From IMG/VR virus record IMGVR_UViG_2706794662_000007: DNA of 64,000 bases; one strand, 5' to 3'. A program made the position numbers and the translations under genes. The DNA comes from a virus (taxonomy: Duplodnaviria > Heunggongvirae > Uroviricota > Caudoviricetes). This document shows, piece after piece, positions 46,161 through 61,242 of this stretch (its first letter is position 1; each line of letters starts with the position of its first letter). Below the pieces are notes generated by a model, which was not told where the DNA came from, made no database searches, and saw only the letters and a program-made list of their open reading frames with translations.

Positions 46161-49100
46161 TCACGACTTAATAGTTTCTGCTACGTCGGCTAATATCGCT
46201 TCTAGTCGTTCTCCCTCTTCAGGTCTGAAGTAAAGAATGTTGGGGTTAAACCCGTAAAAGACTGTAACGTCAAGGTCTGGAAGATACTCCTTCCTACCGA
46301 CTAAATCGGATGGCTTGTTTTTGTTGTTAAACAATGCCGTTGCCCGACTGCCACACGTCAGCACATAGGTCGGACGTACCAGATTGATCTCTTCACGCAT
46401 AAAGTCGGTGAACTGGCCGATCTCGTCTTTGGTGTAGTCCTTTTCTTTGTCTTTCACCTTTTTGCAAACGCCTGTGACATAGAGATCGCCCATGCGCAAA
46501 TCTCCAGCCGTCAACAGCTTGGCCTTAAAATCGTCGTATCCGTTCTCCATGAAGTAACCGGTTCGAGCATCATTGCCGTTTGCATTGTCCAGAATGATCA
46601 TGATTTTCGGCTTAATACCAATGCTGGGGCGGATTAGTTCATCACCTAAGCCCATTTCAGCCGCCATCCGCGTCATAAGTACGTTAATTTCAGCCGAACG
46701 TTTGGAGTTCATCTCAAACGGACGTGAGGCTTTAACTGCGTCTATGACAAGATTTCCCATCAATTCCGCTTGGTCGCGGAGACGTTCTGGATCAGTTGCT
46801 GGCAGACTGCCTGGCTCGATGGATGCAAACGCCCCTACTTTTTGCAGTGATTCGCGCACTCGACTATTACAGGCACGTTTCTCGACAGCTTCTTCGAATT
46901 GCGCCAGTGACTCGAATTTGCCGCCAACTTTTTCTCGCGCTCTCATGATGGCCTGGCAGCCATTCTCAGAACAACCTTTCACAGCAGAGAAGGGCGCATA
47001 CAGCACCTGGCTGCCATCTTCAAGCGTGCGGATCTCAATTCGGTTAGATGACACGTTAACGTCTGGTGGCAATACGCGAATACCATAGGTCAGCGCATCT
47101 TTAACCAGCCCCTGGTGTTTATCTTCGCCAAGAATAGTGAGAGCAGCAGCGAAAAACTCTGCGGGATAATGAGTTTTCAACCACATAGATTGATAACTGA
47201 TTAAGGAGTAAGCAACAGAGTGTGATTTGTTGAACTGGTAGGCACCATTCTTTTCGAATGCGGTCCAGATCTCCTTCGCTTTCATCTCTGATAGCCCTGG
47301 ATGTGACGCTGTAACGCGTACTGCGTTTATAGGTAGTTTTGCGCCGTACTCAAGTGCCTCTTCGACAGTTTTCATAGTTCCGTCTTCGCATTTAAAATGT
47401 TCCGCACGGTGAATGCGCTGTGTAGTGCCATCTTCCAGCTCAACGTCTATCCAGCCAGCTTGAGCCTGAACGATGAACTTCTCGCCCATGCTCTTCATTT
47501 TTTCCATGTCTTTTTTGCCTATCGCTTTACGAACGCCGTCAGCTTCAGCCATTGTGAAGCCAGCAAGCAATCGAGTCGCGTTCATCGTCTGTTCCTGATA
47601 GAGAATCACGCCATTTGTTTCTGCGGTAAGTTCATCAAGAACGGGGTGTAATGATTCCGGCGTCATAAAGCCTTTGGCGACAGAAACATAATCATCCAAC
47701 ATGCCTGACTGAATTGGTCCCGGCCGGAAGAGCGCAGTCGTGGCGACAACGGTTTTAAAGCTCATTGGCTCAATGCCACCGCCCAGATCTTTAAGCAGCT
47801 TGCGCATTGGGCCTGATTCAAGCTGGAAAACACCTTGAGTGTACCCAGCAGCAAAACCATCCAGCACCTTGCGATCTTCAAGAGAAATGGTATCAAGATT
47901 GATATCTTCACCTGTGTTCTCTTTAATGTAGCGTTTTGCACTATCGAGCAAATCGAGAGTTGCCAGGCCAAGCACGTCCAGCTTAATTAGGCCCATAGCC
48001 TCGCAGTAACGCTTGTCAAATGCGATACAACGCGCGTCACCACGGCGCTCAACCGGTGTACGTTCTGTCAGAGGAACACCTGCTACGATCATCCCTGCCG
48101 CATGTCTACCAAAGCCACGCATAAGGCTTTGTAACTTGCAGGCTGCATTGAATGCATCAGGATATTTTGTTGCGTATTTGTCGAGACTTGCCAGTTGTTC
48201 GCGCAGCTCTTCCAATGGAAGGCTATCATCCTCGACGTTCTTCAGTTCTTTTGATACCGCCATATCTGCGGACTCCACACCATAAATACGAGCGGTATCA
48301 CGTAGTGCAGAGGCTGCGCCCAGGTAGGTGAAGTTCGGAATGCCTGCAACGTAATCTTCGCCGTAGCGTTCATTCAGATACTCGATCACTTCATGGCGAC
48401 GTGCCTGGCTGAAGTCCAAATCCGCATCCGGCAAGTCGAGACGCTCAGGGTTGATGAAACGTTCAAACAGAAGACCGTGACGGATTGGGTCGACGTTGGT
48501 TATGCCTATGCACCATGCCACCAGAGATCCAGCGGAGGAACCACGACCAGGCCCGACAGGAATGCCAGTTTCACGACTATGATTCATCAGATCGCGCACC
48601 ATCAGGAAGTAACCACAGAATCCCAGGCGAGTCAGCGTGTCCATTTCGTACTTTAGCCGCTCAACATAAACCCTGTTCTCAGAAGCAGGTGGTGTGTATC
48701 CAAACTCTTTTGTGGTAAGACGTTTACGCAGCCCTGCAACAGCCAGTTTCATCAGCGTTGCAGGTTCGTCGTCTGCCATCTTGGGCAGTGCTGGTGGCAA
48801 TTCATGCCAGCGCCATGTGCAGGCATCGATAATGGTATCCTGCGTTGTTGAGGCCATTGCAGCTGTTACCGGCACATCCATGCGAACGGAGAAGGCTTTA
48901 AGCGCCTCAAGGAGATGGCGGCGACCATTGACGGCGTTATCTCGCTGGTGGGGGATACGCAGACGATGCGGCTGGTCGATTTTTATGTTGTTCGTAACCA
49001 TGTGCGCAATGTCTTTAATGTCTGCATCGTCGATCGATTCGTAATAAGCGGGATAGAACGCCACTGGCTCTATTTTCAATGCGCTGGCGACTTTCATCGC

Positions 49101-49679
49101 CCGGACGTTAATCTGGTCGTAGAATGGGGTAGGGTGCGGATAAACCACACTATAGAAGTTGTCTTTTCCACCCGGTGTAATCAGTGTGCTTATGATTTTT
49201 GCAAAATCGTTGCGTTGGAACACGCTACCGATGTCGGAAGTGAGCAGGATGATGTTGCCTTTGGCATATGTAGAAACCAACTGTTCGAGCGAGAGACGCG
49301 GTACAAAGTAGAACTGTTCTCGTGTGTTGGCCACCGTCATTAGTTCGCAGATGTCGCGATATCCTTGCTCATTTTTAATTAGAGCGGTAAACGAGTAGTT
49401 ACGTCCTCGCTCTAATGATTCCATACATCCCTTAGATTCTTTAGCAAGTTTATCCCGGTGCTCGTATGTGGGATCATCAACGATGTTTAGTTTCACACCA
49501 CAAATAACCGCCATGTCGTCACCAGCGGCACGTTGTAGTGGAATAACACTCGCAATATTCATGCTATCTGCTGAAATTACAGCGGTGTAGCCAGCTTCTC
49601 TGGCAATCTTCACCGCGTTTTCTGCTTTTAGAGCCGACTCCCCAAGTGAGAAGTCAGTTCGAACCATCAGTGCCTTCAT
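46161..49679 (-). CDS. dnaE: DNA polymerase III alpha-like (DnaE-family) replicative polymerase
   Basis: 1172 aa; N-terminal PHP domain; GFCGYFLMVRDLMNHSRETGIPVGPGRGSSAGSLVAWCIGITNVDPIRHGLLFERFINPER matches the DnaE palm region. Confidence 0.9.
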   Translation of the reverse strand: MKALMVRTDFSLGESALKAENAVKIAREAGYTAVISADSMNIASVIPLQRAAGDDMAVICGVKLNIVDDPTYEHRDKLAKESKGCMESLERGRNYSFTALIKNEQGYRDICELMTVANTREQFYFVPRLSLEQLVSTYAKGNIILLTSDIGSVFQRNDFAKIISTLITPGGKDNFYSVVYPHPTPFYDQINVRAMKVASALKIEPVAFYPAYYESIDDADIKDIAHMVTNNIKIDQPHRLRIPHQRDNAVNGRRHLLEALKAFSVRMDVPVTAAMASTTQDTIIDACTWRWHELPPALPKMADDEPATLMKLAVAGLRKRLTTKEFGYTPPASENRVYVERLKYEMDTLTRLGFCGYFLMVRDLMNHSRETGIPVGPGRGSSAGSLVAWCIGITNVDPIRHGLLFERFINPERLDLPDADLDFSQARRHEVIEYLNERYGEDYVAGIPNFTYLGAASALRDTARIYGVESADMAVSKELKNVEDDSLPLEELREQLASLDKYATKYPDAFNAACKLQSLMRGFGRHAAGMIVAGVPLTERTPVERRGDARCIAFDKRYCEAMGLIKLDVLGLATLDLLDSAKRYIKENTGEDINLDTISLEDRKVLDGFAAGYTQGVFQLESGPMRKLLKDLGGGIEPMSFKTVVATTALFRPGPIQSGMLDDYVSVAKGFMTPESLHPVLDELTAETNGVILYQEQTMNATRLLAGFTMAEADGVRKAIGKKDMEKMKSMGEKFIVQAQAGWIDVELEDGTTQRIHRAEHFKCEDGTMKTVEEALEYGAKLPINAVRVTASHPGLSEMKAKEIWTAFEKNGAYQFNKSHSVAYSLISYQSMWLKTHYPAEFFAAALTILGEDKHQGLVKDALTYGIRVLPPDVNVSSNRIEIRTLEDGSQVLYAPFSAVKGCSENGCQAIMRAREKVGGKFESLAQFEEAVEKRACNSRVRESLQKVGAFASIEPGSLPATDPERLRDQAELMGNLVIDAVKASRPFEMNSKRSAEINVLMTRMAAEMGLGDELIRPSIGIKPKIMIILDNANGNDARTGYFMENGYDDFKAKLLTAGDLRMGDLYVTGVCKKVKDKEKDYTKDEIGQFTDFMREEINLVRPTYVLTCGSRATALFNNKNKPSDLVGRKEYLPDLDVTVFYGFNPNILYFRPEEGERLEAILADVAETIKS

Positions 49680-49863
49680 GTGTTTTTACCTTTCTGGTTT
49701 TTTTGATTTTGTCATTTGGGAAGCCTACGAACTTCCCATGCATCGAAATCGCAACTTCTTTTGCTGATTGGTGACAATAAGGCTTGTCTGGACACTCCAG
49801 ACAAGCCTTACCAGTTTCAGAAGCAGCGATAAGAGAGCCGAAACATCCTTTACGCACGATCAA
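49654..49863 (-). CDS. hypothetical small Cys-rich protein
   Basis: 69-aa ORF overlapping the polymerase start. Confidence 0.25.
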   Translation of the reverse strand: MIVRKGCFGSLIAASETGKACLECPDKPYCHQSAKEVAISMHGKFVGFPNDKIKKTRKVKTHEGTDGSN

Positions 49864-51095
49864 CCAAATATTTTTTGAACAACTTCACGAGCCGCTTGTG
49901 CAGAAGCTGAAGGGAGTTTGTTAATGAAAGAACGCTCAATACCTGTCACAAAATCGCCTCGCATCATTCCAATCTTGGCCGACAACAAAAGCTCACGAGG
50001 CCCAATCGGTTGGCTGATATTGTGTTCTTCGTATCCATCGCGAACGATACCGGCAAACTTAACCATCTTTTCAGCGTATTCATCCACGATGCCTGCATTT
50101 GTCAACATGTTGATCTCTGCGTCTTTGCTCATGTATTTCACATTCGAAACGATGCCAAAACGCGAAAAGTTCGCGGCGTTCTGGATGTTTGTACCCTGGT
50201 ACAAGCCGGTTTCATCACCAGATCCGTTCGTGTTGCCAGTGCCAATGAAAGCAAACCGTTCATGCGGAGTAATGCGACGCCATTCTGGAGTTGCCTCTTT
50301 GATGACCAACGCTTCACCTTCCAGCACTGGCTGATACACGCCAAGAATTTGTGGAAACGCAAAGTCGTATTCATCCGCGAGGTAAACCCAGCCATGCTTC
50401 ATTGCGAGCGCAAGCAAGCCAGGTTCGAAATACGTAGAGCCATCACGCGCCAGAATTTGCCCCGTAACATGTGCCTCTTCCATTGATGCTGTATGTTGGG
50501 CACGGATCAACGGACGATTGAGCAAAGCACATAGCTGTGTAGGCAATGACGATTTGCCTGTTCCTGCATGACCCCACAAATAGCCAGGTATGCCAAGTTC
50601 AAGCATCATGAAAATATCTTTGATCAGTTCGAAGTCGCCATATACGTAGCCTTTCTTCACTTCGGGAACGAACTCTGGATACGGCGTATTGACGTTGACG
50701 CTAACCATGAGCGGCGTCCCACGTTTTGTTCCGAGTTCTTCCACCGTTACGTTTAGCAGTTCGTGAGCTGCGACCAGATCTGTCTTGTACTCAACTGTGC
50801 CTGTGTAGCCAGGGCTACTGGTCAAGCCAGAAGATTTGGCCATTTCGCTTTTTTGCTCGGCACGTTTAGCTTGAATTGCATCAAGTGCCTTTTTCGATAG
50901 CGTTGGCTCATCTGGAAACTGTGTTGTGTACATTTTCAGTACGGTGTCAGGATCGGCATCTTTTACTGACTCAGGAATGCCCTCGCAATTACCATTGGCT
51001 ACATGGGACTTAAAATAGTGAAATGATTTTCCGCACCACTTGCAAACAAGGTAATCAGAAGGATTTTTTTCATTTTGCAGTGCAGTAGTAGTCAT
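49860..51095 (-). CDS. cobS: CobS-like (MoxR-type) AAA+ ATPase
   Basis: Walker A GHAGTGKS, Walker B-like YLADEYD; N-terminal Zn-ribbon-like CKWCGK. Confidence 0.65.
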   Translation of the reverse strand: MTTTALQNEKNPSDYLVCKWCGKSFHYFKSHVANGNCEGIPESVKDADPDTVLKMYTTQFPDEPTLSKKALDAIQAKRAEQKSEMAKSSGLTSSPGYTGTVEYKTDLVAAHELLNVTVEELGTKRGTPLMVSVNVNTPYPEFVPEVKKGYVYGDFELIKDIFMMLELGIPGYLWGHAGTGKSSLPTQLCALLNRPLIRAQHTASMEEAHVTGQILARDGSTYFEPGLLALAMKHGWVYLADEYDFAFPQILGVYQPVLEGEALVIKEATPEWRRITPHERFAFIGTGNTNGSGDETGLYQGTNIQNAANFSRFGIVSNVKYMSKDAEINMLTNAGIVDEYAEKMVKFAGIVRDGYEEHNISQPIGPRELLLSAKIGMMRGDFVTGIERSFINKLPSASAQAAREVVQKIFG

Positions 51096-51190
51096 GCGTT
51101 TTTCCTTTGTTTTCTAATGAGCTTTCAACTTCTTATATAAATATACCATCAAATATCGTAAGTGATTACTTATCATTAAGGCTATTCTAA

Positions 51191-53299
51191 TCACTTCAAA
51201 ATGATACGAGATAGTTCAGTAACTACAGATGAACCAAGACTATCAACGCTCGTTACCAGGGCATGATTTGAGTAAAATCTCTCCGGTGCGTCAGTCATGA
51301 TGCCAATTGCCATCAAATCAATGTCAGTCTGCGTTTCAATTTGCTTCGCAACCGAACGCAAATGAGCGTCAAAACCTCTCCCAACAGCCCACGGCGCGCC
51401 ATCACTCAGAACAAGCATGATCTTCCTGTCCTCCATGCGACCGGAAAATAACGATGCAAGGCTGGCTATGCTTTCACCATCCACGTTATTAAGAAGTGGG
51501 AATGTGTAGCCTACGCACCCCATACGTGAGCGAACTTCGCGAGAACTTACCTTTTCATTCCAATTTTTGATGATAGGTAGCATTAAAGATTCAAAGCGAG
51601 AGAACTCATACTTGACAGCCTTAAGTTCTCCTGCCGCCATATGACTACCAAATGTAGTGAAGCCGGTGATAATGTTGGGAACATTTATTCGATCAAGGGC
51701 ATCGGCGATGGTATATGAACTTGCAAGAGCCAATTGTATCGTTATACCACTCATTGAACCTGATAAATCAATCACTTGTTGAACACAGGCGTTAACGGCT
51801 TTAGATTCTTCTTTTTTACGAAACACGCGATCATCATTCATTGCTAATCTGTAGATACTAGAACCATGAATGCGCCCCCGACGCTGGCCCGGTATAAACT
51901 GAACTCTGTTTCTGCTTGCTATTGCTCGCTCCAGGTCTTTTGCCAGCGTCGACGAAACACCTGACGAAAGATGCTTTTCAATATATTTGTCGAAGAGCTG
52001 GTTGCCTTCAGGAACGATGCGATAGCGGCTGATTGGATATCCTCCTAAATCAATATCGGAGAATGTTTTAATAAGCCGTTTGATATGGGCTTCTGCCTGA
52101 TCAATCGAGCCGATGAAGTCGTATGAGCGATTGTATGGCCTGTATTCGCTTTTCGAGCTTTCTGTTAACTCGCTTTTAATCGTTTCGGATAGAGCATCTT
52201 CTGTCATGCCTCCGACTTCATCTTCTATGCTATCCAGCTCCTCTAAAGCCTCTTCCAGACTCATTTTTGACGGAGTTGGAATATCTGAAGAGCCGTCTTC
52301 TGTCGTTTTTCTTTTTTCGTGGTCAGCGGTTAATGATTCTGACGCCGCGTTATCAGAAGCATCAGAATCTGATACCTCTTTATCATTTTCTGTATCATCG
52401 AATATTGTTTCTGATGATTCAGAATTATCTGAATCATCACTGTCGTTATTATCATGTTTGTGCTTACTGTGTGATTCTGATTCGATAGATTTGTGATTAT
52501 CTAACGCTGAGGGTGTCTCATGATCTTCGTTGTCTTCATTGTTTTCTCCAGAGGCATCCGTCTGGTCAGCGTCTGAAGGATCGGAAGTTTTTCCCGGAGC
52601 TGACTCCTTACCTTTGCTTTCACTTTCAGTGTCTTTGAGGATCTTAGCTATGGTCGCAGCCACCTTTACACAATCCTCGGTGCAAGACATGTTACGCACG
52701 GCCACATCGATACCATGTTCTTTTAATAATGAAATTGGTTTCTCAATGACAGGCCAGTATTCATCCATGAAATCTACGAACGGTGCTTGGCCATCCCAGG
52801 CTCTTACAACCGGACAGAGAAAGAAGTTTAGAAAAAGCGCGCGCTGATCTTTGCCACAATAAGCAATAGCCTCTGAAGCCTTTGGTTTAAAGACTTTTTC
52901 GATTATAAGGCGCTGAGTTGCCATCAGATTACGTCTCGTTCCGTTAAAGACCTGCCCCATTTTTCGCTCGATGAACACGTCTTCTAATGCATTCCATAGT
53001 GACCGGGAAGGAACGCGTCCTTTTTCTCTCATTTTGTTGGAGACACGAATATCGGTAAACAAAATGTGAGCAACCTCATGATCGAGAAATCCGCGCACAG
53101 CATTCATCAATGCCGGTGTTGCGTTATCCGGAATTGATGGGATGTTTACGAGAATTGGCTCTCCATCATCGTTATAGCGTACATAAGCGTCGTCTCCTCG
53201 TTCTGCAACAGGGATGTTTTTACCTGAAAGGAGAGCGACTACTCGTTTTACACTGTCACGGAAGTCCTGAACCTCTTTGATGGAACGTTTTTTAGACAT
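51191..53299 (-). CDS. cobT: CobT-like von Willebrand factor A domain protein
   Basis: 702 aa; MIDAS motif DLSGSMSG; long acidic D/S/E-rich linker; adjacent to AAA+ partner. Confidence 0.6.
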   Translation of the reverse strand: MSKKRSIKEVQDFRDSVKRVVALLSGKNIPVAERGDDAYVRYNDDGEPILVNIPSIPDNATPALMNAVRGFLDHEVAHILFTDIRVSNKMREKGRVPSRSLWNALEDVFIERKMGQVFNGTRRNLMATQRLIIEKVFKPKASEAIAYCGKDQRALFLNFFLCPVVRAWDGQAPFVDFMDEYWPVIEKPISLLKEHGIDVAVRNMSCTEDCVKVAATIAKILKDTESESKGKESAPGKTSDPSDADQTDASGENNEDNEDHETPSALDNHKSIESESHSKHKHDNNDSDDSDNSESSETIFDDTENDKEVSDSDASDNAASESLTADHEKRKTTEDGSSDIPTPSKMSLEEALEELDSIEDEVGGMTEDALSETIKSELTESSKSEYRPYNRSYDFIGSIDQAEAHIKRLIKTFSDIDLGGYPISRYRIVPEGNQLFDKYIEKHLSSGVSSTLAKDLERAIASRNRVQFIPGQRRGRIHGSSIYRLAMNDDRVFRKKEESKAVNACVQQVIDLSGSMSGITIQLALASSYTIADALDRINVPNIITGFTTFGSHMAAGELKAVKYEFSRFESLMLPIIKNWNEKVSSREVRSRMGCVGYTFPLLNNVDGESIASLASLFSGRMEDRKIMLVLSDGAPWAVGRGFDAHLRSVAKQIETQTDIDLMAIGIMTDAPERFYSNHALVTSVDSLGSSVVTELSRIILK

Positions 53300-53397
53300 G
53301 GCTAATCCTTTGTTATGAAAACAAATTATTTACTAGTGTGTTTAATGTAGCACTGCGCGAACAGGGAACTAAGCCATTCGCGCAGGTAGCAGAGGGG

Positions 53398-53610
53398 TTA
53401 ACAGGTTCTGACGGCTAAAGAGCCAGAGCCGGTATTGATAAGCGTGAAGCGTTTGTTATTAAGTAGGAATATAAAGGCTGTTGCGTCATGCATACCAACC
53501 TGAATCTGCTCATTTGGTAATTCGGTGAGAATGTCAGCTACACATTCATCAGCTAATTTTTCAACGTGTCCGATCTCAAGAGTGATTAGGCTGGAAATAG
53601 TTGTTTTCAT
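53398..53610 (-). CDS. hypothetical small protein
   Basis: 70-aa ORF divergent from XRE regulator across an AT-rich 250-bp region. Confidence 0.35.
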   Translation of the reverse strand: MKTTISSLITLEIGHVEKLADECVADILTELPNEQIQVGMHDATAFIFLLNNKRFTLINTGSGSLAVRTC

Positions 53611-53857
53611 TCAATCAATCCATTCTAACTTAAAATATGGTAGGGAGTACTATTAAATCTTATATCATAATTGAACTTATCTATATCATATCTGAGTTAG
53701 TTTTGTTACATGTTATTAGTCGTTTTTCTCCATTAATGAATGCTGATTGGTTAATATTTGTGCCTGTAGAAAAAATGATTATATCTTTACAACCCTAACC
53801 TTTGATGTAATATCGGTAAGCACTTACCAGAGAGTTTAACGCGCAAAGGTCGCAATA

Positions 53858-54244
53858 ATGTCTGACAAAAACATTGAATTTATAGAAAGTCGCTATGCTG
53901 CTTTTATCGCAGGGCTGATTGAATCCTCACCTATGAGTCAGGCCCAAATAGCCAGACTTATTGGTTATAAAAATGCCAACAACCTTTCTTTAATTAAAAG
54001 TGGTAAAATTCCTTTGCCTATCGATAAGGTTCGTCCGCTGGCGTTGGCGCTGGGTATTGAGCCAAGTCGTCTTATGATGATGGTGCTGGAAGAACGCCAA
54101 CCTGAACTCGCAGCATTTTTATACAAAGAAGGTACCGCTCCTCTTAACGAGGACGAAAAACAGGTTCTTGCTGCATATAACGAGCGATTCGGTAAAGAGA
54201 AAGGCGCATCACAAAAGGTTGTTGAGGCCATAAAGTCTCTATGA
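53858..54244 (+). CDS. XRE-family helix-turn-helix transcriptional regulator
   Basis: MSQAQIARLIGYKNANNLSLIKSGKIPLP resembles HTH_XRE; only clear plus-strand gene in this region. Confidence 0.6.
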   Translation: MSDKNIEFIESRYAAFIAGLIESSPMSQAQIARLIGYKNANNLSLIKSGKIPLPIDKVRPLALALGIEPSRLMMMVLEERQPELAAFLYKEGTAPLNEDEKQVLAAYNERFGKEKGASQKVVEAIKSL

Positions 54245-55342
54245 AAAATTTAGACGAATAAGCTCTGTTGATAGACGATCTCCCTTGAATTTGTGGTCAA
54301 TTTCGTCTAAATCCGGTTGCTCTACGATTGATGCGATGTACGTTGAGAAACTTTCTAAGGCGTCTCGCATCTCGTCCATATAATCGTGCCGGTCGTAGAC
54401 CCGATCTATCCCCTCAAGACTGTGGTTCATTATTTTGCGTGATACCTCCTGGCTTATGCCTAATGCTGGGAAGTAACTACGCGCAGTACGGCGCAAATCT
54501 CGGGGTGTAAATGGCGCAAGCTCCATCAGTTCTGGTCGTTCCAGAATACGACGTAATGCCTGGGCTATTGCCACTTTAGACATAGGAAGGTCTTTCCCGA
54601 TTTTTTTATTCGAAGGCACGAGCCACTGGCTGTCTTTACCGTATTCGAACAACTCTTCAATGCATGTGCGCATTAATGTGCTTAAAGGTAGCGAATGCTC
54701 ACGTGCTGACTTGTTTCTCTTGCCTTGATTCCAAACTCCACGCTTAAGATTGAACTCACTTTTTTTAGCCCTCAGTACTTCGTCAGGTCGTCTTGCTGAT
54801 ACAAGACATAGCCTGGCCGCCCATTTTGTACCAGCGCACACATTGAAGTAGTCCCATATATTCCAGAACACCCATACCTCTGCGTCGGTCAGCTTCCGCT
54901 CGCGAGGTGTGGGCTTTGCGCCACCGGCAACTTTGTTTAGTGACATATCGTTTAACGGTGACACGTCTATCATCCCCTGGAAGGCGCACCAGCTAAGGAA
55001 CTGCTTCATCAGAGAGAAAACGCGGCGGCCCATAACAATTTTGCCATCCAATATTAGAGGGTTGACCAGTTGGTTAACCATGAACCTATTAATGTCACTT
55101 ACTTTTACATCAGCAATGTGCGGCAAAACATGTATCAAAATACAATGAACAGCGATCTCTGGCCGACGTCTGGTTATCAGCAGAGATAAGCGAGTGAATA
55201 ACATGAATGCGTCCGAGAATATCATGTTATTGTTGATCTGTGAGATCATAATGGCCTGCATTTGAGATGCTCTTTCGAGATACTCAATTGCCTCTTTTGA
55301 GGTGTTTTCTGCTGCGCGTGCTCTGTCAAAGCTATTTTTCAT
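54239..55342 (-). CDS. tyrosine recombinase (integrase or dimer-resolution recombinase)
   Basis: C-terminal RDLRRTARSY...MNHS...RVYDRHDY consistent with R-H-R-Y catalytic arrangement; box-I-like SARRPDEV. Confidence 0.6.
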   Translation of the reverse strand: MKNSFDRARAAENTSKEAIEYLERASQMQAIMISQINNNMIFSDAFMLFTRLSLLITRRRPEIAVHCILIHVLPHIADVKVSDINRFMVNQLVNPLILDGKIVMGRRVFSLMKQFLSWCAFQGMIDVSPLNDMSLNKVAGGAKPTPRERKLTDAEVWVFWNIWDYFNVCAGTKWAARLCLVSARRPDEVLRAKKSEFNLKRGVWNQGKRNKSAREHSLPLSTLMRTCIEELFEYGKDSQWLVPSNKKIGKDLPMSKVAIAQALRRILERPELMELAPFTPRDLRRTARSYFPALGISQEVSRKIMNHSLEGIDRVYDRHDYMDEMRDALESFSTYIASIVEQPDLDEIDHKFKGDRLSTELIRLNFS

Positions 55343-55549
55343 TTATTGGCATTCACCTAGTTACGCTGATCACCTGTATAAGTAACCAGTATATTAGGCA
55401 TTGATTCTTTTGGAATCAAGCTAAAATCTTTCATGCGGAAAATGATTCCATACCTAAAGAGTATGGAATCATTTTTTTCTGTAGAGCTAGTTTTAAATAT
55501 TTGATTCGATATGAAGCCAGGCAATTTCATGCCTGGCTGTTACTTTGTG

Positions 55550-57463
55550 TTAGGTTGGGTTGTTGATGCTAATGGTAAGTGTTTCGATAGCAAGATCATG
55601 AGTTTGGTTGTTTGTTATATCTGTTAAAACAAAAGCCTCATCACCAAGAGCAATATTGTCTTTAACCAGCTTGAATTTACTCCCCGCCTTGCCATCGAGA
55701 ACGGGAATTACAGTTCCTGTGCCTTTCTCATATTGCAACTCAAGAGTGTGCCAATTGTTGTCGTAGTCACCATATGAGTCTATCTGAACATTTCGATTAT
55801 TGCCTGTCCTGTGCATCATAATGTTCAACTTGCCTCCAATTGTTTGAAGGAAGAAGTTAGCCAGAAACAGGCTCCCAGTACCGTCGAATGATATATCGTC
55901 AGCAACAGGTTTACTGGTTTTGTAATATATACCAAAGCCAAACTTAGCTTTTTTTGGATCAGGGTTTCCAGATAATTTAAACTTACAAAGTAATTTACCT
56001 CCATTCTCAAGAAGAGCCTGTGCTATGTCAGTAGCTTTACTGATCGTCCAAGTTTCGTTGGAAACCGCTTTAGTTAAAGCAATTGCTTTTCCGTTTTCAA
56101 CTGACTGAATATTTGCACCAGTTACAGTCCATCCTTGTTCAGTAGCGACATCACCACCAGCTCCAGTTAAGGAAATAACCGTTCGCGGGGTTGGAGTTGT
56201 GACAATGTTGTCATTTTTAGGTTGAGTAGGTTGTTCTTGTTTAATAATCTCACCTGTAACGCCATTCACAAAAGCAGATGATTTCGCTGAATGTGCAAGC
56301 AGCGCAGTTGCGAGACGATCAGATATTATTCCGCGTCGCTGCCATGAACCAAAATGACTCTCTCTACTCTCGGAAGTCCATGTTTTATTATCCTTGCGAT
56401 GACCGGAACCATAATAGCCAATAGATGTGATGTCTGGATCATCTGTAGGGCTATTGGTTAATACGTTATTATCATTCTCATCTTTCATGAATGGAACGAA
56501 ATAAATTGCTTGTGAGGTTTTTCCCTTATAACCACCATAAACAATTTCGTACTGTTTTGGATATTTGTTTTTCCACCAGTGGGTCGTATCGCCACAAATC
56601 CAGGGTACATTTGCAGCACTTCCGAAAACACATTGTGCGTCGTATTGAGATAGCTCTTTTCTGAAACCTTCGACCATCTTGAGGAACAGTTCGTTATGCT
56701 GCGAGTACTTGCCAGTTGCCAAATCAGCTTCGCCTTGCATCCAGACAACACCAAGAAATACATTCTTTTTGTTTTTACTTAAGGCCGCTTTTGTTCTGGC
56801 TACAATATCCTTATACAAAGGAGTATTTAATCCCCATTTTAAAGATGATTCGATTGCACCTGACTCTTCATAATATTGGCCTTCAGAGCCTGTAACAGTG
56901 AAACCAGAACCACCTCTTCCGCAAGGAACGAGCAAAATACCTGCGTTTGCTGGAATGAATGGTAATAGTTTTTTGCCAATGTGTAGTCCCTGACCAACAC
57001 ATCCATATTCAGAGTCGTTTGCTTTTGGATGCTTGAATTTAGTCATGTCTTGTACATCATGAAGACAGTGATCAGCGGGAATTATTTCATTGTACTTACA
57101 GGCAAAACCACCTGGTTTAATATTGCTGCGTCGAGCTAACTGTTTTACGCGAGGATGTGGCCGATCAAAAGTTTTTGGCATAGGCAGTCCTTCGCCGTAT
57201 GACATTGAGTTGGATTGACCTGCGATAGTAACTACATAATAATAGTCAGGCTCTTCATCTTCATTTGATACCGGTGTGGGCAATTGTGATAAATCACCAG
57301 ATCGCACAATTGCTTGATTGTACGCATTTGGTCCGCCCTTACTTGGTTCAACAATGTTTGGTGACTCGAAAGGTTGCCAACCCTCTGCGATTTTCTCCGC
57401 AAGTTTTTCTCTAAGCTCTTTGCTTGATGATGCTGACAAAATATCATAGTCAATGAATGACAT
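55550..57463 (-). CDS. NanS-p-like sialate O-acetylesterase (DUF1737 N-terminus, SGNH esterase, C-terminal beta-rich domain)
   Basis: YYYVVTIAGQSNSMSYGEG (GQSN block); N-terminus MSFIDYDILSASSSKELREKL resembles prophage NanS-p family as recalled. Confidence 0.6.
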   Translation of the reverse strand: MSFIDYDILSASSSKELREKLAEKIAEGWQPFESPNIVEPSKGGPNAYNQAIVRSGDLSQLPTPVSNEDEEPDYYYVVTIAGQSNSMSYGEGLPMPKTFDRPHPRVKQLARRSNIKPGGFACKYNEIIPADHCLHDVQDMTKFKHPKANDSEYGCVGQGLHIGKKLLPFIPANAGILLVPCGRGGSGFTVTGSEGQYYEESGAIESSLKWGLNTPLYKDIVARTKAALSKNKKNVFLGVVWMQGEADLATGKYSQHNELFLKMVEGFRKELSQYDAQCVFGSAANVPWICGDTTHWWKNKYPKQYEIVYGGYKGKTSQAIYFVPFMKDENDNNVLTNSPTDDPDITSIGYYGSGHRKDNKTWTSESRESHFGSWQRRGIISDRLATALLAHSAKSSAFVNGVTGEIIKQEQPTQPKNDNIVTTPTPRTVISLTGAGGDVATEQGWTVTGANIQSVENGKAIALTKAVSNETWTISKATDIAQALLENGGKLLCKFKLSGNPDPKKAKFGFGIYYKTSKPVADDISFDGTGSLFLANFFLQTIGGKLNIMMHRTGNNRNVQIDSYGDYDNNWHTLELQYEKGTGTVIPVLDGKAGSKFKLVKDNIALGDEAFVLTDITNNQTHDLAIETLTISINNPT

Positions 57464-57607
57464 AATCGTTACTCCTTTAACGATAAACTTTAGCTAAAAT
57501 CGTATCGATTTTAGCAGTTAAAAAACGACAATAAAATATAAGAGTAATGTATGAAAGAACAATAAAAATTGCGTAAATGGATATGTGTAAAATATGTGGA
57601 ATTTCAC

Positions 57608-57687
57608 ACACAGCGTTGAGCGGTCTGGTTTATGTTAGCGGAGTCTTAATCGAGTTGATTAAAAGGCCAAACCGCTCAACGCTGTGT
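57608..57687. repeat. 17-bp perfect inverted repeat (ACACAGCGTTGAGCGGT) with 46-bp spacer, abutting tRNA-Ser
   Basis: arms 57608-57624 and 57671-57687. Confidence 0.8.
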
Positions 57688-57688
57688 C

Positions 57689-57775
57689 TGGCGGAGAGTA
57701 ATGGAATCGAACCATCATCGCTTGCGCAATGGGACGGTTTTCAAGACCGCTTGAGCACCATGCTCCCTACTCTCC
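57689..57775 (-). tRNA. tRNA-Ser (anticodon UGA), type II with long variable arm
   Basis: 7-bp acceptor stem GGAGAGT/ACTCTCC, anticodon loop CTTGAAA, T-loop TTCGATT, encoded CCA; short D-loop. Confidence 0.65.
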
Positions 57776-57939
57776 AGTCGTTGTGGTTACCGGTACTGAT
57801 CTCCGGCTTAGCGACCCCGGCTACTGACTGCATTGCAGTGTGTGAACTCGCCTCGTGTGTCGCTGGGGCATTTCTTTCCGCGCATCAGTCTGCGCATCAA
57901 CCACAACGGAAAGAGCATTCACGTCTCGCGTGCCACCAC

Positions 57940-58035
57940 GAATGGCAACTCAGAGAGTCGAACTCTGAAAATGTTCTTACCTGTTGTGCGCTCCGTTTCG
58001 TGGAGCTAACGGCGGGTGAACAGGCCGCACCAGGT
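57940..58035 (-). pseudogene. tRNA-like remnant (T-arm intact, no pairing acceptor stem)
   Basis: perfect T-arm CAGAG-TTCGACT-CTCTG but no complementary acceptor stem found. Confidence 0.3.
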
Positions 58036-58265
58036 TGGACATATTTCAGCGTTATGCTGTTGCAAGAGAGCCAAATTGTGATGGTCGGCGCTGATCTCCG
58101 ACACAGGGTTGTAGCAAGCCCCGCAAAGCGCGCACTACTGTAGTTGCGGCACATCAGCCTGTGCATTCACCACAATGTTGAGAACACTGGTTGTCACGCG
58201 GCAACGCAACATTTATTCATAGATTGGGATATGACCCCGTTACGCCAATGTTCTCAATATTATGT

Positions 58266-58341
58266 TGGTGCCGATTAACGGGATCGAACCGATGACCATT
58301 CGCTTACAAAGCGACTGCTCTACCAACTGAGCTAAATCGGC
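58266..58341 (-). tRNA. tRNA-Thr (anticodon UGU)
   Basis: acceptor GCCGATT/AATCGGC, D-arm TAGCTCAGTTGGTAGAGCA, anticodon loop TTTGTAA, T-loop TTCGATC, encoded CCA. Confidence 0.8.
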
Positions 58342-58345
58342 AATT

Positions 58346-58432
58346 TGGTGGGGAGTGATAGAGTCGAACCACCCGAGTCGCAATGACAGTAGATTTACAG
58401 TCTACCCCGCTACCTCTACGGACTAACTCCCC
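58346..58432 (-). tRNA. tRNA-Tyr (anticodon GUA), type II
   Basis: acceptor GGGGAGT/ACTCCCC, anticodon arm GTAGA-CTGTAAA-TCTAC, long variable arm, encoded CCA. Confidence 0.8.
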
Positions 58433-58437
58433 TAAAT

Positions 58438-58512
58438 TGGCGATGGTGGGTGGATTCGAACCACCGACCAATTGGTTAACAGCCAACTGCTCTACCGCTG
58501 AGCTACACCATC
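58438..58512 (-). tRNA. tRNA-Asn (anticodon GUU)
   Basis: perfect 7-bp acceptor GATGGTG/CACCATC, anticodon loop CTGTTAA, T-arm GGTGG-TTCGAAT-CCACC, encoded CCA; differs from E. coli tRNA-Asn as recalled. Confidence 0.85.
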
Positions 58513-58760
58513 AATTCGGCACTGCCAGTATTTATTACTCAACAGTGCCAATCGCGGCGGTGTTAGTTTCTGCCAGGAAACGCACCGCTACTTGCACTTT
58601 TCGTTAGTGTCAGACGCTTTCGACTTCTCTCAATAGAAGGCAAAATCTTTAAGTAGATGATGTTTCTGAGGACAGCACCTACTTTGTAATTTATACAATG
58701 TGATGTATGGAATCATTTGTTGTGGAAAAGTGGTTAAACCTACACAACAATCCTGTCTTC

Positions 58761-58880
58761 ACAACGTTGAGGCCACTACTCCGATTGAATGTTTGCCCAA
58801 CATGTTACATATCAACGCTCGCCGGTATCTCTGTGAATAGAACCTTAGAATTGATAAAAATGTAATGGCCTCAACGTTGT
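58761..58880. repeat. 15-bp perfect inverted repeat (ACAACGTTGAGGCCA) with ~90-bp spacer, related to the repeat at 57608
   Basis: arms 58761-58775 and 58866-58880; shares core CACARCGTTGAG with 57608-57687. Confidence 0.8.
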
Positions 58881-58958
58881 GTGCTGGCTAACCATACCAG
58901 CCGGGCTACGTCGCCGCTTTTTAACCCAGTATAAACGACATAATTGAACAAAATGACG

Positions 58959-59066
58959 TAACAGAATGGGCGGTCAGTGGCTAAGAATCCGGGAGTCATA
59001 TGGAGTTGAAAATATACCGACCGCCCATTCTGTTACTTCATCGGAGGGAACATGAGTGTTCCCTCC
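58959..59066. repeat. two further perfect inverted repeats (17-bp arms with 43-bp spacer; 10-bp arms with 4-nt loop)
   Basis: arms 58959-58975/59019-59035 and 59043-59052/59057-59066. Confidence 0.8.
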
Positions 59067-59271
59067 TGCGTTCTGCAATCACACTCGCTCAGTGTGTCCC
59101 ATTTCGGTAACGAGGCTGGAAACTGACCTCGCTGGTGTTTGGCTTATTAGGCTACTGCCAGATAGACTTCTTCGTTTGCACTTGTATTTAAGTTCAAACA
59201 GTCGCATCTCAACGAAAACAAAGTCATCTTATACACAAAGGATAAGTAAGTAAATACTTATCGATATGTTT

Positions 59272-59562
59272 TTATTCGGTTGTGACTTTTTTGATCAAGG
59301 CCACTCTACGACTAGGTGTTCTTGTGATGGTGGCAGTGAATCGTTTCGCTTGGATAGTAATGGTTTCGTTCTCCTTAAGTTGCCCGTAGCGAGTTTCCAC
59401 CAGGGTGCCAAGACGCCACAGACCATCATCGATACGTTTATGACTAGCAAATTTAATCAGCAACAGTTTTACGACTAACTGACCTACGTAAAAGGCGAAT
59501 GCGACTCCGACCGCTAAGAAATAGGTGGCCAACCACCAGTCCCAAGAAGTTAAATTGCTCAT
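59272..59562 (-). CDS. hypothetical membrane protein
   Basis: 96 aa with N-terminal hydrophobic segment. Confidence 0.4.
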   Translation of the reverse strand: MSNLTSWDWWLATYFLAVGVAFAFYVGQLVVKLLLIKFASHKRIDDGLWRLGTLVETRYGQLKENETITIQAKRFTATITRTPSRRVALIKKVTTE

Positions 59563-59712
59563 TTTCTAACCTTTGTTTCATGAACTACCCGATACACACG
59601 CTTTCCGATGCACAGTGTTTTGGTTTTAAGTTCCTGCTTAATTAAATCACGACAGATGCCGAAGCCGATAAGGAAGCCACCAATAAAAGCTAATGAGATG
59701 TATGGAATCATT
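59560..59712 (-). CDS. small membrane protein (50 aa), translationally coupled
   Basis: below ORF-track cutoff; ATGA overlap with downstream gene. Confidence 0.3.
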
Positions 59713-59923
59713 TTAACACTCCTGATTCTACTAATTGCTGTAGCAATACTTTCCCTTTATCAGTTAACTGGTAGTTGGCTGAGCACCACGTTTCCGAAAT
59801 GTTTGCAACCAACCCTAAACGCTCTAAATTAGCTCGCGTTTTAGGCTTCCAGTACTGAGGGAACTCCGGCCACTTACTTATTTCATGAAGCGTTTCTTTC
59901 TCCCGTTTACTTAATACGATCAT
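59708..59923 (-). CDS. hypothetical small protein
   Basis: 71-aa ORF overlapping neighbours by 4 nt. Confidence 0.4.
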   Translation of the reverse strand: MIVLSKREKETLHEISKWPEFPQYWKPKTRANLERLGLVANISETWCSANYQLTDKGKVLLQQLVESGVLK

Positions 59924-61242
59924 TCTTTATCTCCGATTCGATCTTCGGTATCGCGTAAGCAACGCGGCCATTTCAGTCGTGGGTGGCGTAAGCTGCCATC
60001 AGGTGTTTTCTCGTGACAATGAACCTCGACAATACGACCACGGTACTTCTCTTTGTTGTTCCAGATCTCGTCCAGATATTTATGCTTAATGCCGCTCGCA
60101 CGAACGATGACGCCGTTTTCAAGACGAATAACTATTTTTCCAAGCGTGTTGGCAAAACCAGAGTCCGGGTCGCCCGGCTCAAAATCGATAATTTCACCAT
60201 CTTCTGAATCTTCGTCTTTTAACTTCCACCAGCTGCGGGTACGTTTAAACTCGTAAACAGAGTTCGGATCTTTGCCCATCTCCCCTTCTTCGTTATCGTC
60301 CAGGCGTTTCATGAAGCGTTCGATGAAGTCTTCGTGGCTATGGATGATATAGAACGGATGCAGGTGAATGTCTTGTGTGTAGCCTTCACTGCGATCGTTT
60401 TTAAACAACGCCACCAGCATAGCCAGGCGCTCTTTCAGCTTCATACCTGTCTTTGCATACTCTTTGGATTTAGCCTGTGCTCGCCATTCCGGTAGGAAGA
60501 AGTCGAAAACATGATAAATAGCGCCAATTGCCTGCACGTTCTTTTTGCGCAATGCAGATACGGACTGGTTAAATGAACCGGCAGTTCCTTCACCATCGAA
60601 GAAGATGTGTTTGTGGCCTGAAAGTTTGCCTAATTCTAGCATTGCTGGCTTTAGGTGATCGAGAGACGTGATTGGATTACCAGTACGAGAAAGGAAGTTA
60701 ACCTCTTCCTCGTCAACAATAACCTCGCAAATTACTCGCAAACCATCGAGCTTAAGACTGCCAATCATCGGCCATTTTGCTTTAGGATTTGGCTTGAAGG
60801 GGTATTTGTCGCCTTTTTCTTTATACGGTGACGCCAGCTGCACCTCGAATTTCGGAATGGGATTTTCAAAAACCTTGTTGCATAGGCTAATCCCAACACC
60901 TGCTTTCGGGTCTTTTAAGAGGAAACGACGGAACACGTCCTGCCCATCGGCGCACATTGACGCCACGATAGACTCAACAGCTGCTATTGCTGCGTTCCCC
61001 GTTAGCTCGCGAGAGGCCAGCTTATTCAGTACATCAATGGCTTTTTCGTCACTTGGGATGGACTCACTAAGCGGCTCTGCCACTTTGTATTTCTTTACCC
61101 CAAAACGGATGAAAGGGTTGAGCATCAATGAAACCATGCTTTGCTCGAAGTCATCCATGTTGGCCAATGCCTCTTTTTTTGCATTGGTTCCCATAGCTTT
61201 CATTTCGTCCAGCTTATGCTTAAGTGCGATCAACTTTTTCAT
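59920..61242 (-). CDS. ATP-dependent DNA ligase
   Basis: nucleotidyltransferase motif I KLDGLR (K-x-D-G-x-R), motif III-like FFDGEG, 440 aa. Confidence 0.8.
   Translation of the reverse strand: MKKLIALKHKLDEMKAMGTNAKKEALANMDDFEQSMVSLMLNPFIRFGVKKYKVAEPLSESIPSDEKAIDVLNKLASRELTGNAAIAAVESIVASMCADGQDVFRRFLLKDPKAGVGISLCNKVFENPIPKFEVQLASPYKEKGDKYPFKPNPKAKWPMIGSLKLDGLRVICEVIVDEEEVNFLSRTGNPITSLDHLKPAMLELGKLSGHKHIFFDGEGTAGSFNQSVSALRKKNVQAIGAIYHVFDFFLPEWRAQAKSKEYAKTGMKLKERLAMLVALFKNDRSEGYTQDIHLHPFYIIHSHEDFIERFMKRLDDNEEGEMGKDPNSVYEFKRTRSWWKLKDEDSEDGEIIDFEPGDPDSGFANTLGKIVIRLENGVIVRASGIKHKYLDEIWNNKEKYRGRIVEVHCHEKTPDGSLRHPRLKWPRCLRDTEDRIGDKE

Follow-up and report, generated by a model that had tools for sequence, protein, structure and literature searches.

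The 64,000-nucleotide stretch of viral DNA analysed here (IMG/VR record IMGVR_UViG_2706794662_000007, hereafter called the window) comes from an SSU5-like phage-plasmid and carries a non-coding array in which four transfer RNA (tRNA) genes are interspersed with long inverted repeats. Its sequence in this region matches SSU5-like phage-plasmids of Escherichia and Shigella at 98-100% identity, among them Escherichia phage CMS-2020a and one Shigella sonnei plasmid (100%), and the minus strand carries every gene around the repeats. An initial annotation had reported four inverted repeats around a cluster of four tRNA genes, with a tyrosine recombinase nearby, and had offered two candidate functions for the repeats, namely recombination sites or tRNA-operon processing structures. 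The reported features are all present: the four repeats were found as described, the genes for tRNA-Ser, tRNA-Thr, tRNA-Tyr and tRNA-Asn lie on the minus strand, and the open reading frame (ORF) at 54239-55342 on the same strand carries the Pfam Phage_integrase domain.

A recurring stem-loop family within the array

When read from 5' to 3' on the minus strand, the array (Table 1) begins with a promoter-like element that is followed by RNA X, hairpins a and b, a small hairpin and hairpin c. Next are a further hairpin (58750-58717), a 14-mer, the genes for tRNA-Asn, tRNA-Tyr and tRNA-Thr, hairpin d and the tRNA-shaped module U1. The array ends with an 86-nt structured stretch, an H-type hairpin, the U1 paralogue U2, tRNA-Ser and hairpin e. 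At least six stem-loops are contained within the array, and the hairpins are confined to its 1.65 kb of non-coding DNA.

The repeats go far beyond what chance would produce, in line with the initial annotation, which had called repeats of this length unlikely by chance. Only six inverted repeats of at least 15 nt, with arms within 200 nt of each other, exist in the whole window, and three of these are located here; by our own arithmetic, approximately 0.01 such perfect 15-bp repeats would be expected by chance in 64 kb. The core that was said to be common to the left and right repeats, CACARYGTTGAG, is represented by five exact copies in the window, all inside 57609-58881. With a tolerance of one mismatch, shuffled sequences still averaged 1.4 matches, and a count of seven did not occur in any of 100 shuffles. 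The description of the repeats as a bracketing pair holds only in part. Both members are present, but hairpin d (arms 58168-58190/58245-58267) and the H-type hairpin (57902-57988), which had been overlooked, lie inside the cluster. Given that these third and fourth family-related hairpins are internal, the repeats are better described as punctuation at intervals along the cluster than as a single pair around it.

A single family of the form (C)ACAAC...stem...GUUGUG includes hairpins c, d and e, all three of which carry the invariant stem-base sequence CAACGUUGAG. Pattern scans of viral contigs yielded approximately 100 loci for this family, mostly in tRNA operons of phage-plasmids. The (C)ACAAC...GUUGUG stem base is the only feature common to all hairpins, and the upper stems differ (GUUGAG..., AGGUAAGAGCA..., GAUAAGAUCAUUAC..., GGUAAGGGUAUUU...). 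The occurrence of the hairpins is independent of an integrase: members without an adjacent integrase gene are found in SSU5, where hairpin c and tRNA-Asn lie directly beside cobT, in P1 (within the ban operon) and D6, in HK620-type and Pantoea prophages, and in the Klebsiella phage Carvaje. No description of these hairpins was found in literature on the P1 ban operon, SSU5/pHCM2 RNAs, the core sequence and the tag peptide of RNA X, a body of work that did not include the P1 genome paper.

The hairpins hold fixed positions relative to RNA genes. Those of the hairpin e type (74-77 nt from core to core) lie 4-5 nt past the CCA end of tRNA-Ser in every locus having this type, hairpin e of the window itself is mapped as starting 1-2 nt past that end, and diverged hairpins follow tRNA-Ser in D6 and Carvaje as well. 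The 89-90-nt type, to which hairpin d belongs, separates tRNA-Thr from tRNA-Ser in P1- and D6-like plasmids. Hairpin d itself is a degenerate member that starts 1-2 nt past tRNA-Thr and whose 3' arm runs into the 5' strand of the U1 closing stem; its P1- and D6-type orthologues form a near-perfect 23-bp stem. The 92-118-nt type (hairpin c) is found 250-330 nt upstream of tRNA-Asn in every SSU5-like plasmid. A stable hairpin directly after RNA X, in the position of hairpin a, is also present in HK620, Carvaje and Felix O1-like phages. Finally, a 67-nt type occurs in the Pantoea prophage with no tRNA nearby; there it is located downstream of a repressor gene, a terminator and a strong TTGACA...CATAAT promoter, and it is accompanied by a second family member.

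A chromosomal repeat family of the REP, ERIC or MITE kind was considered and rejected. A pattern scan of 185,579 species genomes revealed a single locus tied to the family, in a Pantoea rwandensis prophage (the contig of viral locus L094), and the 55 other matches, many of them in Nostoc, were judged by their titles only.

Table 1. Features of the array and its surroundings in the window, grouped by kind.
Feature	Position	Strand	Details
Non-coding array	59254->57605	minus	~1.65 kb without credible ORFs
Hairpin a (fourth repeat)	59043-59066	minus	10-bp stem directly after RNA X; arms 59043-59052/59057-59066, 10 nt, perfect
Hairpin b (third repeat)	58952-59042	minus	~26-bp stem, variable loop; arms 58953-58978/59016-59041, 26 nt, 92% complementary
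Small hairpin	58883-58901	minus	GCUGG-UAUGGUUA-GCCAGC
Hairpin c (right repeat)	58760-58881	minus	20-bp stem, base CACAACGUUGAG/CUCAACGUUGUG; arms 58760-58779/58862-58881, 20 nt, 95% complementary, with perfect 15-bp core
Further hairpin	58750-58717	minus	Between hairpin c and the 14-mer
Hairpin d	58168-58264	minus	Arms 83% complementary
H-type hairpin	57902-57988	minus	CACAAC-AGGUAAGAACAUU...GAAUGCUCUUUCC-GUUGUG; related to the family
Hairpin e (left repeat)	57605-57690	minus	~21-bp stem, base CACAGCGUUGAG/CUCAACGCUGUG; arms 57605-57628/57667-57690, 24 nt, 92% complementary, with perfect 17-bp core (57608-57624/57671-57687)
tRNA-Asn	58438-58512	minus	ARAGORN, Rfam
tRNA-Tyr	58346-58432	minus	ARAGORN, Rfam
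tRNA-Thr	58266-58341	minus	ARAGORN, Rfam
tRNA-Ser (UGA)	57689-57775	minus	ARAGORN
RNA X	59069-59222	minus	~155 nt; internal tag frame, no start codon
U1 module	58075-58176	minus	U2 paralogue; 93% identical to phage P1 upl/plp region
Structured spacer	57989-58074	minus	86 nt, between U1 and the H-type hairpin
U2 module	57780-57907	minus	tRNA-shaped RNA; ends 4 nt before tRNA-Ser
Putative array promoter	59226-59260	minus	-35 TTTACT 59254-59249; -10 TAAGAT 59231-59226
Invariant palindrome	59260-59243		TAAGTAnnnnnnTACTTA = TAAGTA-TTTACT-TACTTA; over the -35 element of the putative RNA X promoter
14-mer	58705-58718	plus	GTATGGAATCATTT; between hairpin c and tRNA-Asn; on the minus strand then TTGTATAAAT
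15-7-15 perfect palindrome	55439-55475		AAAATGATTCCATAC-TCTTTAG-GTATGGAATCATTTT; 97 nt upstream of the integrase start codon
Tyrosine recombinase	54239-55342	minus	Ordinary phage-integrase type
DNA ligase operon	59920-61242	minus
SASA/DUF1737/DUF6645 gene	55550-57463	minus
57-codon ORF		minus	Between the SASA/DUF1737 gene and the integrase gene
CobT/AAA genes		minus	Past the integrase gene

Evidence for conservation of the stems as minus-strand RNA

Comparison of the hairpins among relatives indicates that their arms covary and that their variation is strand-asymmetric. Pairing of hairpin a is maintained through compensatory changes at five pairs. Among 22 diverse sequences of hairpin c, the lower 12 bp are invariant and the upper stem is variable; of its 19 pairs, two exhibit compensatory changes and three carry one-sided changes, all of which are G.U on the tRNA strand. 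Hairpin b has nine positions with G.U or U.G variants on the minus strand across relatives, versus one A.C position. Because a two-strand energy comparison that allows G.U on one strand only is biased, it was replaced by a symmetric count across all stems of approximately 90 loci, which gave 49 G.U, 25 A.C and 34 other changes, with all three classes inflated by overlapping families. The loop of hairpin c forms two small hairpins that display the motifs CACAGAG and AUGUUGGG, and these motifs are strand-specific, being kept on the transcribed strand in SSU5-like plasmids and the Pantoea prophage. In addition, the array leader has a much stronger predicted fold than its shuffled versions (z = -12.4), and the same comparison for the array trailer (57464-57700) gave z = -7.8. 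Given the compensatory changes, the G.U bias, the loop motifs and the fixed register to tRNA ends, these comparisons support the view that selection has kept the stems as RNA structures of the minus strand.

The hairpins also lack the features of terminators. No intrinsic terminator site was detected on the minus strand between 57300 and 59400, and the sequence after the stems is not U-rich. Since none of the hairpins has a U-tract, they are not intrinsic terminators, and simple terminators, which the initial annotation had named as an outcome that would refute its proposal, are not what the repeats are.

We therefore favour, with moderate confidence, the reading that the repeats are minus-strand RNA stem-loops that act as processing or insulating helices of a multi-gene non-coding precursor. 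This corresponds to the second of the two functions proposed initially, and it is favoured by the fixed register of the hairpins, their covarying stems and the placement of G.U pairs on the transcribed strand. A single precursor transcript would extend across the array. Each hairpin, abutting the end of an RNA module either 1-5 nt past a CCA or directly after RNA X, would fold independently and so keep neighbouring modules from misfolding. A double-strand-specific endonuclease, for which host RNase III is the obvious candidate, would then cut the duplexes of 20-26 bp, and exonucleases together with RNase P would complete the ends of the tRNAs and small RNAs. A hairpin located right after the CCA would otherwise be expected to block 3' trimming.

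The hairpins are plausible RNase III substrates, as stems of 20-26 bp are long enough for this enzyme, which requires at least 20 bp (approximately two helical turns) of nearly perfect double-stranded RNA. Predicted stems reach approximately 21 bp in hairpin e, 20 bp in hairpin c, approximately 26 bp in hairpin b and 23 bp in hairpin d of the P1 type. RNase III takes part in processing both the T4 tRNA cluster and ribosomal RNA (rRNA) operons, where long duplexes likewise flank or separate stable RNAs in a non-coding transcript. The T4 cluster also contains the stable RNAs C and D, and its tRNAs, like those described here, are interspersed with small stable RNAs having tRNA-like features. However, the hairpins in the window are local rather than long-range pairings of 5' and 3' sequences, they have an invariant stem base, and they form a multi-copy family across unrelated phages. 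A second set of precedents is provided by tRNA punctuation in mitochondrial transcripts, by MALAT1-mascRNA and by the tRNA-like/pre-miRNA units of MHV68. In these systems, too, tRNAs or tRNA-like structures lie beside hairpins and tRNA-processing enzymes set the ends of their neighbours, whereas the setting here is a bacterial phage and the hairpins are not known to yield small RNAs. By analogy, RNase III processing stems and tRNA punctuation are the systems that the hairpins most resemble in function.

Several points weigh against this reading. Co-transcription and cleavage are both steps that we infer. Hairpins b and c show a clear strand asymmetry, but over all stems it is only approximately 2:1; moreover, the P1 version of hairpin d has a C.A mismatch, and an A.C mismatch is present in hairpin b of most relatives. 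The stretch at 58689-58718 may hold an internal promoter or operator, in which case the array would yield two transcripts. Mosaic junctions at a hairpin edge and loop inversions, both described below, show that the palindromes are also active as DNA. The invariance of the stem base ((C)ACAAC/GUUGUG, CAACGUUGAG) exceeds the sequence conservation that RNase III needs, which points to a sequence-specific partner or to alternative pairing with the U modules. This invariance may stem from alternative pairing with the U closing stem, from a sequence-specific factor or from gene conversion among copies.

If the hairpins are indeed processing signals, they define the ends of several small RNAs, which would make these RNAs experimentally tractable. 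Phage tRNA clusters are usually annotated as bare tRNAs, and the DNA between them is ignored or assigned spurious ORFs. In the present case, the spacers contain structured RNAs arranged in a conserved and repeated grammar, and these RNAs are common to enterobacterial phages of widely differing kinds and to phage-plasmids that are frequent in clinical settings.

RNA X, the U modules and the surrounding array

The locus as a whole constitutes an undescribed modular RNA array, of which a tmRNA-like RNA (resembling transfer-messenger RNA, the product of ssrA) is the most striking member. This RNA, termed RNA X, contains an internal reading frame at 59179-59144 (GCA AAC GAA GAA GUC UAU CUG GCA GUA GCC UAA UAA) that encodes ANEEVYLAVA followed by two stops. 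Across phages, the tag conforms to AN(D/E)(E/D/N)x(Y/F)LAVA, with ANEEVYLAVA, ANDNQYLAVA, ANEDTYLAVA, ANEEMYLAVA and ANDNVFLAVA among its variants. The frame lacks a start codon and is conserved as protein, as is expected of a tmRNA tag: third positions change synonymously, and upstream there are in-frame stops and frame-shifting indels. Other likenesses to tmRNA are a GCA resume codon after an A/U-rich context of the AUA type, the resemblance of AN(D/E)xx(Y/F)LAVA to ANDENYALAA, and the placement of the stop codons in a hairpin loop corresponding to helix 5, where the consensus pairs UGGC/GCYA enclose ...GUAGCCUAAUAA....

Unlike tmRNA, RNA X is only approximately 155 nt in length and has no recognisable tRNA-like domain, in that no acceptor stem with G3.U70, T-arm or 3' CCA was found for it. 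A search by eye and by consensus folding of the flanking hairpins, the U modules and the 5' and 3' ends produced no consistent candidate for a tRNA-like partner. The U modules are not an obligatory partner, because SSU5 has RNA X and lacks them. ARAGORN with default settings called no tmRNA in the window, SSU5, HK620, wV8, KMM4 or Carvaje, and the Rfam tmRNA models align to the tag part of RNA X with scores below threshold (13-31 bits versus the 47 required). An ssrA call by ARAGORN has been noted in the genome of the related phage Moogle (PMC4319497). In phage wV8 (L008), an uncalled tRNA-like sequence is located at approximately 1694-1785, about 40 nt past RNA X and its hairpin. It has the acceptor stem CGGGGCG/CGCCUCG (G3.U70), A73, CCA and a canonical T-arm but no D-arm, and it could be a lead to the tRNA-like partner of RNA X or a decayed tRNA-Arg.

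RNA X is nearly invariant among SSU5-like plasmids. Wherever homologues occur, they either accompany tRNA genes, preceding them or lying in their midst, or form part of a late leader, as is seen in the HK620 late leader, in the tRNA arrays of Felix O1-like phages, in Mooglevirus, and upstream of tRNAs in Carvaje and Aeromonas phage pIS4-A. Of 5,426 complete E. coli genomes, 258 contain the RNA X block, which is nearly always plasmid-borne and is never annotated. Should RNA X prove functional, phages may be interfering with the rescue of ribosomes and the tagging of proteins.

The U modules are predicted to adopt a tRNA-like shape. Their consensus comprises a closing stem (GUUGUGGUG/CACCACAAC), a GCRCA-GRCUGA-UGYGC hairpin, a variable centre and a CCGG-AGAUCAGYR-CCGG hairpin, and the module ends 4 nt before the next tRNA. 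In U2 of the window, the corresponding parts are GUUGUGGUU/AACCACAAC, GCGCA-GACUGA-UGCGC, the variable centre and CCGG-AGAUCAGUA-CCGG. The three helices keep their pairing through compensatory changes among paralogues and orthologues, and no Rfam match to the modules was obtained. In the Thr/Asn-to-Ser spacers of all loci compared, each hairpin is followed by a U module. The order hairpin-X-hairpin-U also occurs on the transcribed strand in Carvaje and in the HK620 late leader, between qut and tQ. The sequence GUUGUG is common to the 3' arm of the H-type hairpin and the U closing stem. The loop of this hairpin includes a T-arm-like hairpin, CAGAG-UUCGACU-CUCUG, followed by AGUUGCCA, and canonical T-arms are found in some hairpin loops of relatives (GGGUUCGAGUCCC in Carvaje, AGGGUUCGAAUCCCU in D6).

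These components invite a broader speculation, which we regard as unlikely, that the hairpins are the joints of a set of modular, phage-borne mimics of translation-related RNAs, not previously described as a system. RNA X, derived from tmRNA, would supply an alternative tag (...YLAVA) for ribosome rescue, the U modules and T-arm hairpins would supply or mimic parts of tRNAs, and these RNAs, together with ordinary tRNAs, would all be cut from one precursor at the ACAAC/GUUGU stems. The distribution of this set takes in phage-plasmids (SSU5-like and P1-like), prophages (P22-like and Pantoea) and phages of the Felix O1-like and Klebsiella groups.

A number of smaller observations concern the same modules. 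Additional U modules lie at 1715-1815 of L007 and at approximately 811-912 of L168, with the conserved loops GRCUGA and AGAUCAG, and the U module of HK620 ends with ...CACCACA-G-CCA, which resembles a tRNA 3' end. In the L080 spacer, the first ~135 nt past tRNA-Asn appear to encode a tRNA-like gene (GCCGGUU...AACCGGCA-CCA) that is interrupted by approximately 60-70 extra nucleotides in the anticodon region. In phage P1 (L001, 2483-3052), the annotated genes upl and plp run opposite to the ban-operon transcript over a hairpin/U array that is 93% identical to 57967-58257. Since they are antisense and lie directly over this conserved array, upl and plp may be spurious ORFs over RNA genes. Just upstream of the SSU5 counterpart of the array, an ORF is annotated as a "C-type natriuretic protein".

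Expression of the array is presumed to start at the putative promoter upstream of RNA X, an assignment made by sequence inspection that falls below the threshold of our consensus scan in the window. At the same distance from RNA X, Felix O1-like phages carry TTGACA-17-TATAGT. The invariant palindrome over the -35 element (59243-59260) may be an operator. A scan with the sigma-70 promoter consensus matched nothing at the hairpins. Rfam searches of the whole window at gathering scores, and of the region at E<=10, returned the tRNAs only, plus chance matches of microRNA precursors to the long hairpins. Searches for additional tRNA or tmRNA genes with ARAGORN, including introns, lowered thresholds and the mitochondrial mode, gave nothing credible on the transcribed strand; the "permuted tmRNA" calls at low threshold are noise, though one of them picks up the ANEEVYLAVA frame.

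Alternative explanations for the inverted repeats

We next weigh rival explanations. One is that the palindromes matter mainly as DNA, extruding as hairpins or cruciforms and acting, by way of their short shared stem bases, as recombinase-independent joints at which modules and cargo are shuffled, with RNA structure a by-product. Similarity to Cyrano, CMS-2020a (SCU-107 record), pJN2-26 and others stops at 57609, which is the outer edge of hairpin e, and a P1-like segment of 290 bp (57967-58257, 93% identical) lies between family members. The Thr-Ser spacer ranges from 8 to 646 nt among plasmids that are otherwise approximately 95% identical, because hairpin-plus-U units, with direct CACAAC repeats on either side, have been gained, lost or fused into chimeras. 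Loops also flip: the 4-nt loop of hairpin a (59053-59056) reads CTCA, TGAG, TTCA or TGAA in near-identical plasmids (equivalents in L004, L002 and L026), and the 76-nt loop of the c-type hairpin in L060 is inverted relative to that in L080. Yet shuffling of DNA leaves unexplained why compensatory pairing is kept across SSU5, Klebsiella and Escherichia lineages, why a change in one arm only gives G.U when read on the transcribed strand, why loop motifs and loop orientation are strand-specific (all but one c-type locus share the orientation, with 52 distinct hairpin sequences compared), and why the distance from hairpin to tRNA end is fixed. We judge it improbable that DNA is the main level of action. 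A passive DNA-level role is part of the processing reading itself: because the stem bases are short shared repeats, they also serve as joints for swaps of modules and cargo, with loops sometimes flipping, and no dedicated recombinase is required.

A role as transcription signals is also improbable in our assessment. According to this idea, the hairpins could be factor-dependent terminators or pauses that lack U-tracts and part a constitutive RNA X from a repressed tRNA operon, or they could be Rho barriers or antitermination RNAs similar to put. A long untranslated array needs protection from Rho, and an operator-like 14-mer and a -10-like element are present between hairpin c and tRNA-Asn. 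Furthermore, the HK620 modules occupy the late leader (qut-tQ) and those of the Pantoea prophage come right after the early promoter, where HK022 has putL, so that the family shares with put the character of a cis-acting structured RNA just past lambdoid early or late promoters. However, put RNA consists of two bulged stems of approximately 70 nt (PMC9378689), unlike the long perfect stems found here. It binds RNA polymerase and has no sequence similarity to the hairpins, and none of the family motifs is present between PL and nun in HK022, the immunity region that holds putL. The hairpins are not put RNAs, and in addition to the missing U-runs on the minus strand, hairpins d and e sit immediately beside tRNA 3' ends, an arrangement more in keeping with processing than with termination.

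A slimmer prospect is that the stem base is the site of a sequence-specific RNA-binding protein or of a nuclease other than RNase III, or that it operates as a switch in which GUUGUG pairs either back into its hairpin or forward to close the next U module. The invariance of the lower 12 bp of hairpin c beneath a varying upper stem is in keeping with this proposal, as is the presence of ACAAC/GUUGU in otherwise unrelated hairpin subfamilies and in U closing stems. The extended sequence GUUGUG(G/A)UGAAU, which comes after hairpins in P1, HK620, Pantoea and the window, can be read in the same manner. No candidate protein has been identified, however, and conservation of the base could equally reflect recent common ancestry or gene conversion.

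The first function suggested by the initial annotation, that of recombination sites for the neighbouring recombinase, fares worst. Some features do recall the attC sites of integrons (57-141 bp): the hairpins span 67-122 nt with a self-complementary, variable centre, their conserved ends ACACAAC...GTTGTGR agree at six of seven positions each with RYYYAAC and GTTRRRY, and near-identical plasmids differ by gain and loss of the RNA modules that lie between them. The resemblance is one of outline only. The stems are nearly perfectly paired over 17-24 bp, with at most a 1-nt mismatch or bulge above ACAAC/GUUGU in some relatives, and the defining marks of attC, extrahelical bases and an unpaired central spacer, are missing from them; there is no integron-type integrase, attI or Pc, the cargo consists of RNA modules, and the distribution of wobble pairs speaks for RNA. 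Only the general models Phage_integrase and Phage_int_M detect the integrase, whereas the NCBIfam integron-integrase models do not, and it is not of the integron, shufflon or Cre/Xer type. Its close relatives (at least 80% identity) are found in only nine phage records, the remainder being ordinary prophage integrases with less than 60% identity, and its kin are lambdoid and P4-type.

Programmed inversion of the cluster is not supported either. The c-e interval has one orientation in 68 of 68 public genomes, with RNA X, which lies outside the interval, always preceding tRNA-Asn and sharing its strand. Because this strand and order are constant in all 68 loci, we see no sign of such inversion; only single-hairpin loops flip. 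In invertible switches such as Cin/cix, Hin/hix, shufflons and Cre/lox, the paired short core sites consist of two recombinase-binding arms around a spacer of 6-8 bp, unlike the 38-82 nt between the arms of the tRNA-flanking repeats. The breakpoints of module chimeras fall in module interiors and also at module edges, the pattern expected of ordinary homologous exchange.

A cargo slot of 2.1 kb (55476-57608) is bounded within 1-3 bp by hairpin e on one side and by the 15-7-15 palindrome beside the integrase gene on the other, and it holds the SASA/DUF1737/DUF6645 gene here and 1.6-3.4 kb of other genes in relatives (for example, glutaredoxin). The two edges are, however, unrelated sequences. 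Together with the integrase-independent distribution of the family and the G.U pattern, these findings make it highly unlikely that the hairpins are attachment, resolution, inversion or attC-like sites of the 54239-55342 recombinase. For the scanning of genomes, the lesson is that long perfect inverted repeats beside an integrase gene need not be recombination sites.

The integrase appears to have its own site in the 15-7-15 palindrome immediately upstream of its gene, which is the sole site in lox/dif format and forms the left edge of the cargo slot. Of the sequences considered, this palindrome is the likeliest recombinase or operator site, and a better candidate than the hairpins. Its half-site is the 14-mer GTATGGAATCATTT, for which there are five copies in the window (four exact; 0.6 expected), at 49413-49426, 55440-55453, 55461-55474, 58705-58718 and 59700-59713. 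Scattered operators are the pattern of the C1 repressor sites of P1, and the copies of GTATGGAATCATTT could be C1-like operators or core sites of a recombinase. The copy at 58705-58718 is invariant in SSU5 and pJN2-26 and is, judging from its sequence, a candidate operator or promoter, although the consensus scan found no promoter there.

A direct repeat of a tRNA 3' end, which would mark an integrated island, was not found in 48000-57500. A 17-mer at 59352-59368, inside the ORF at 59272-59562, shows 82% identity to the 3'-terminal part of the tRNA-Ser gene; this is probably a chance match, or it could be the remnant of an attachment-site repeat.

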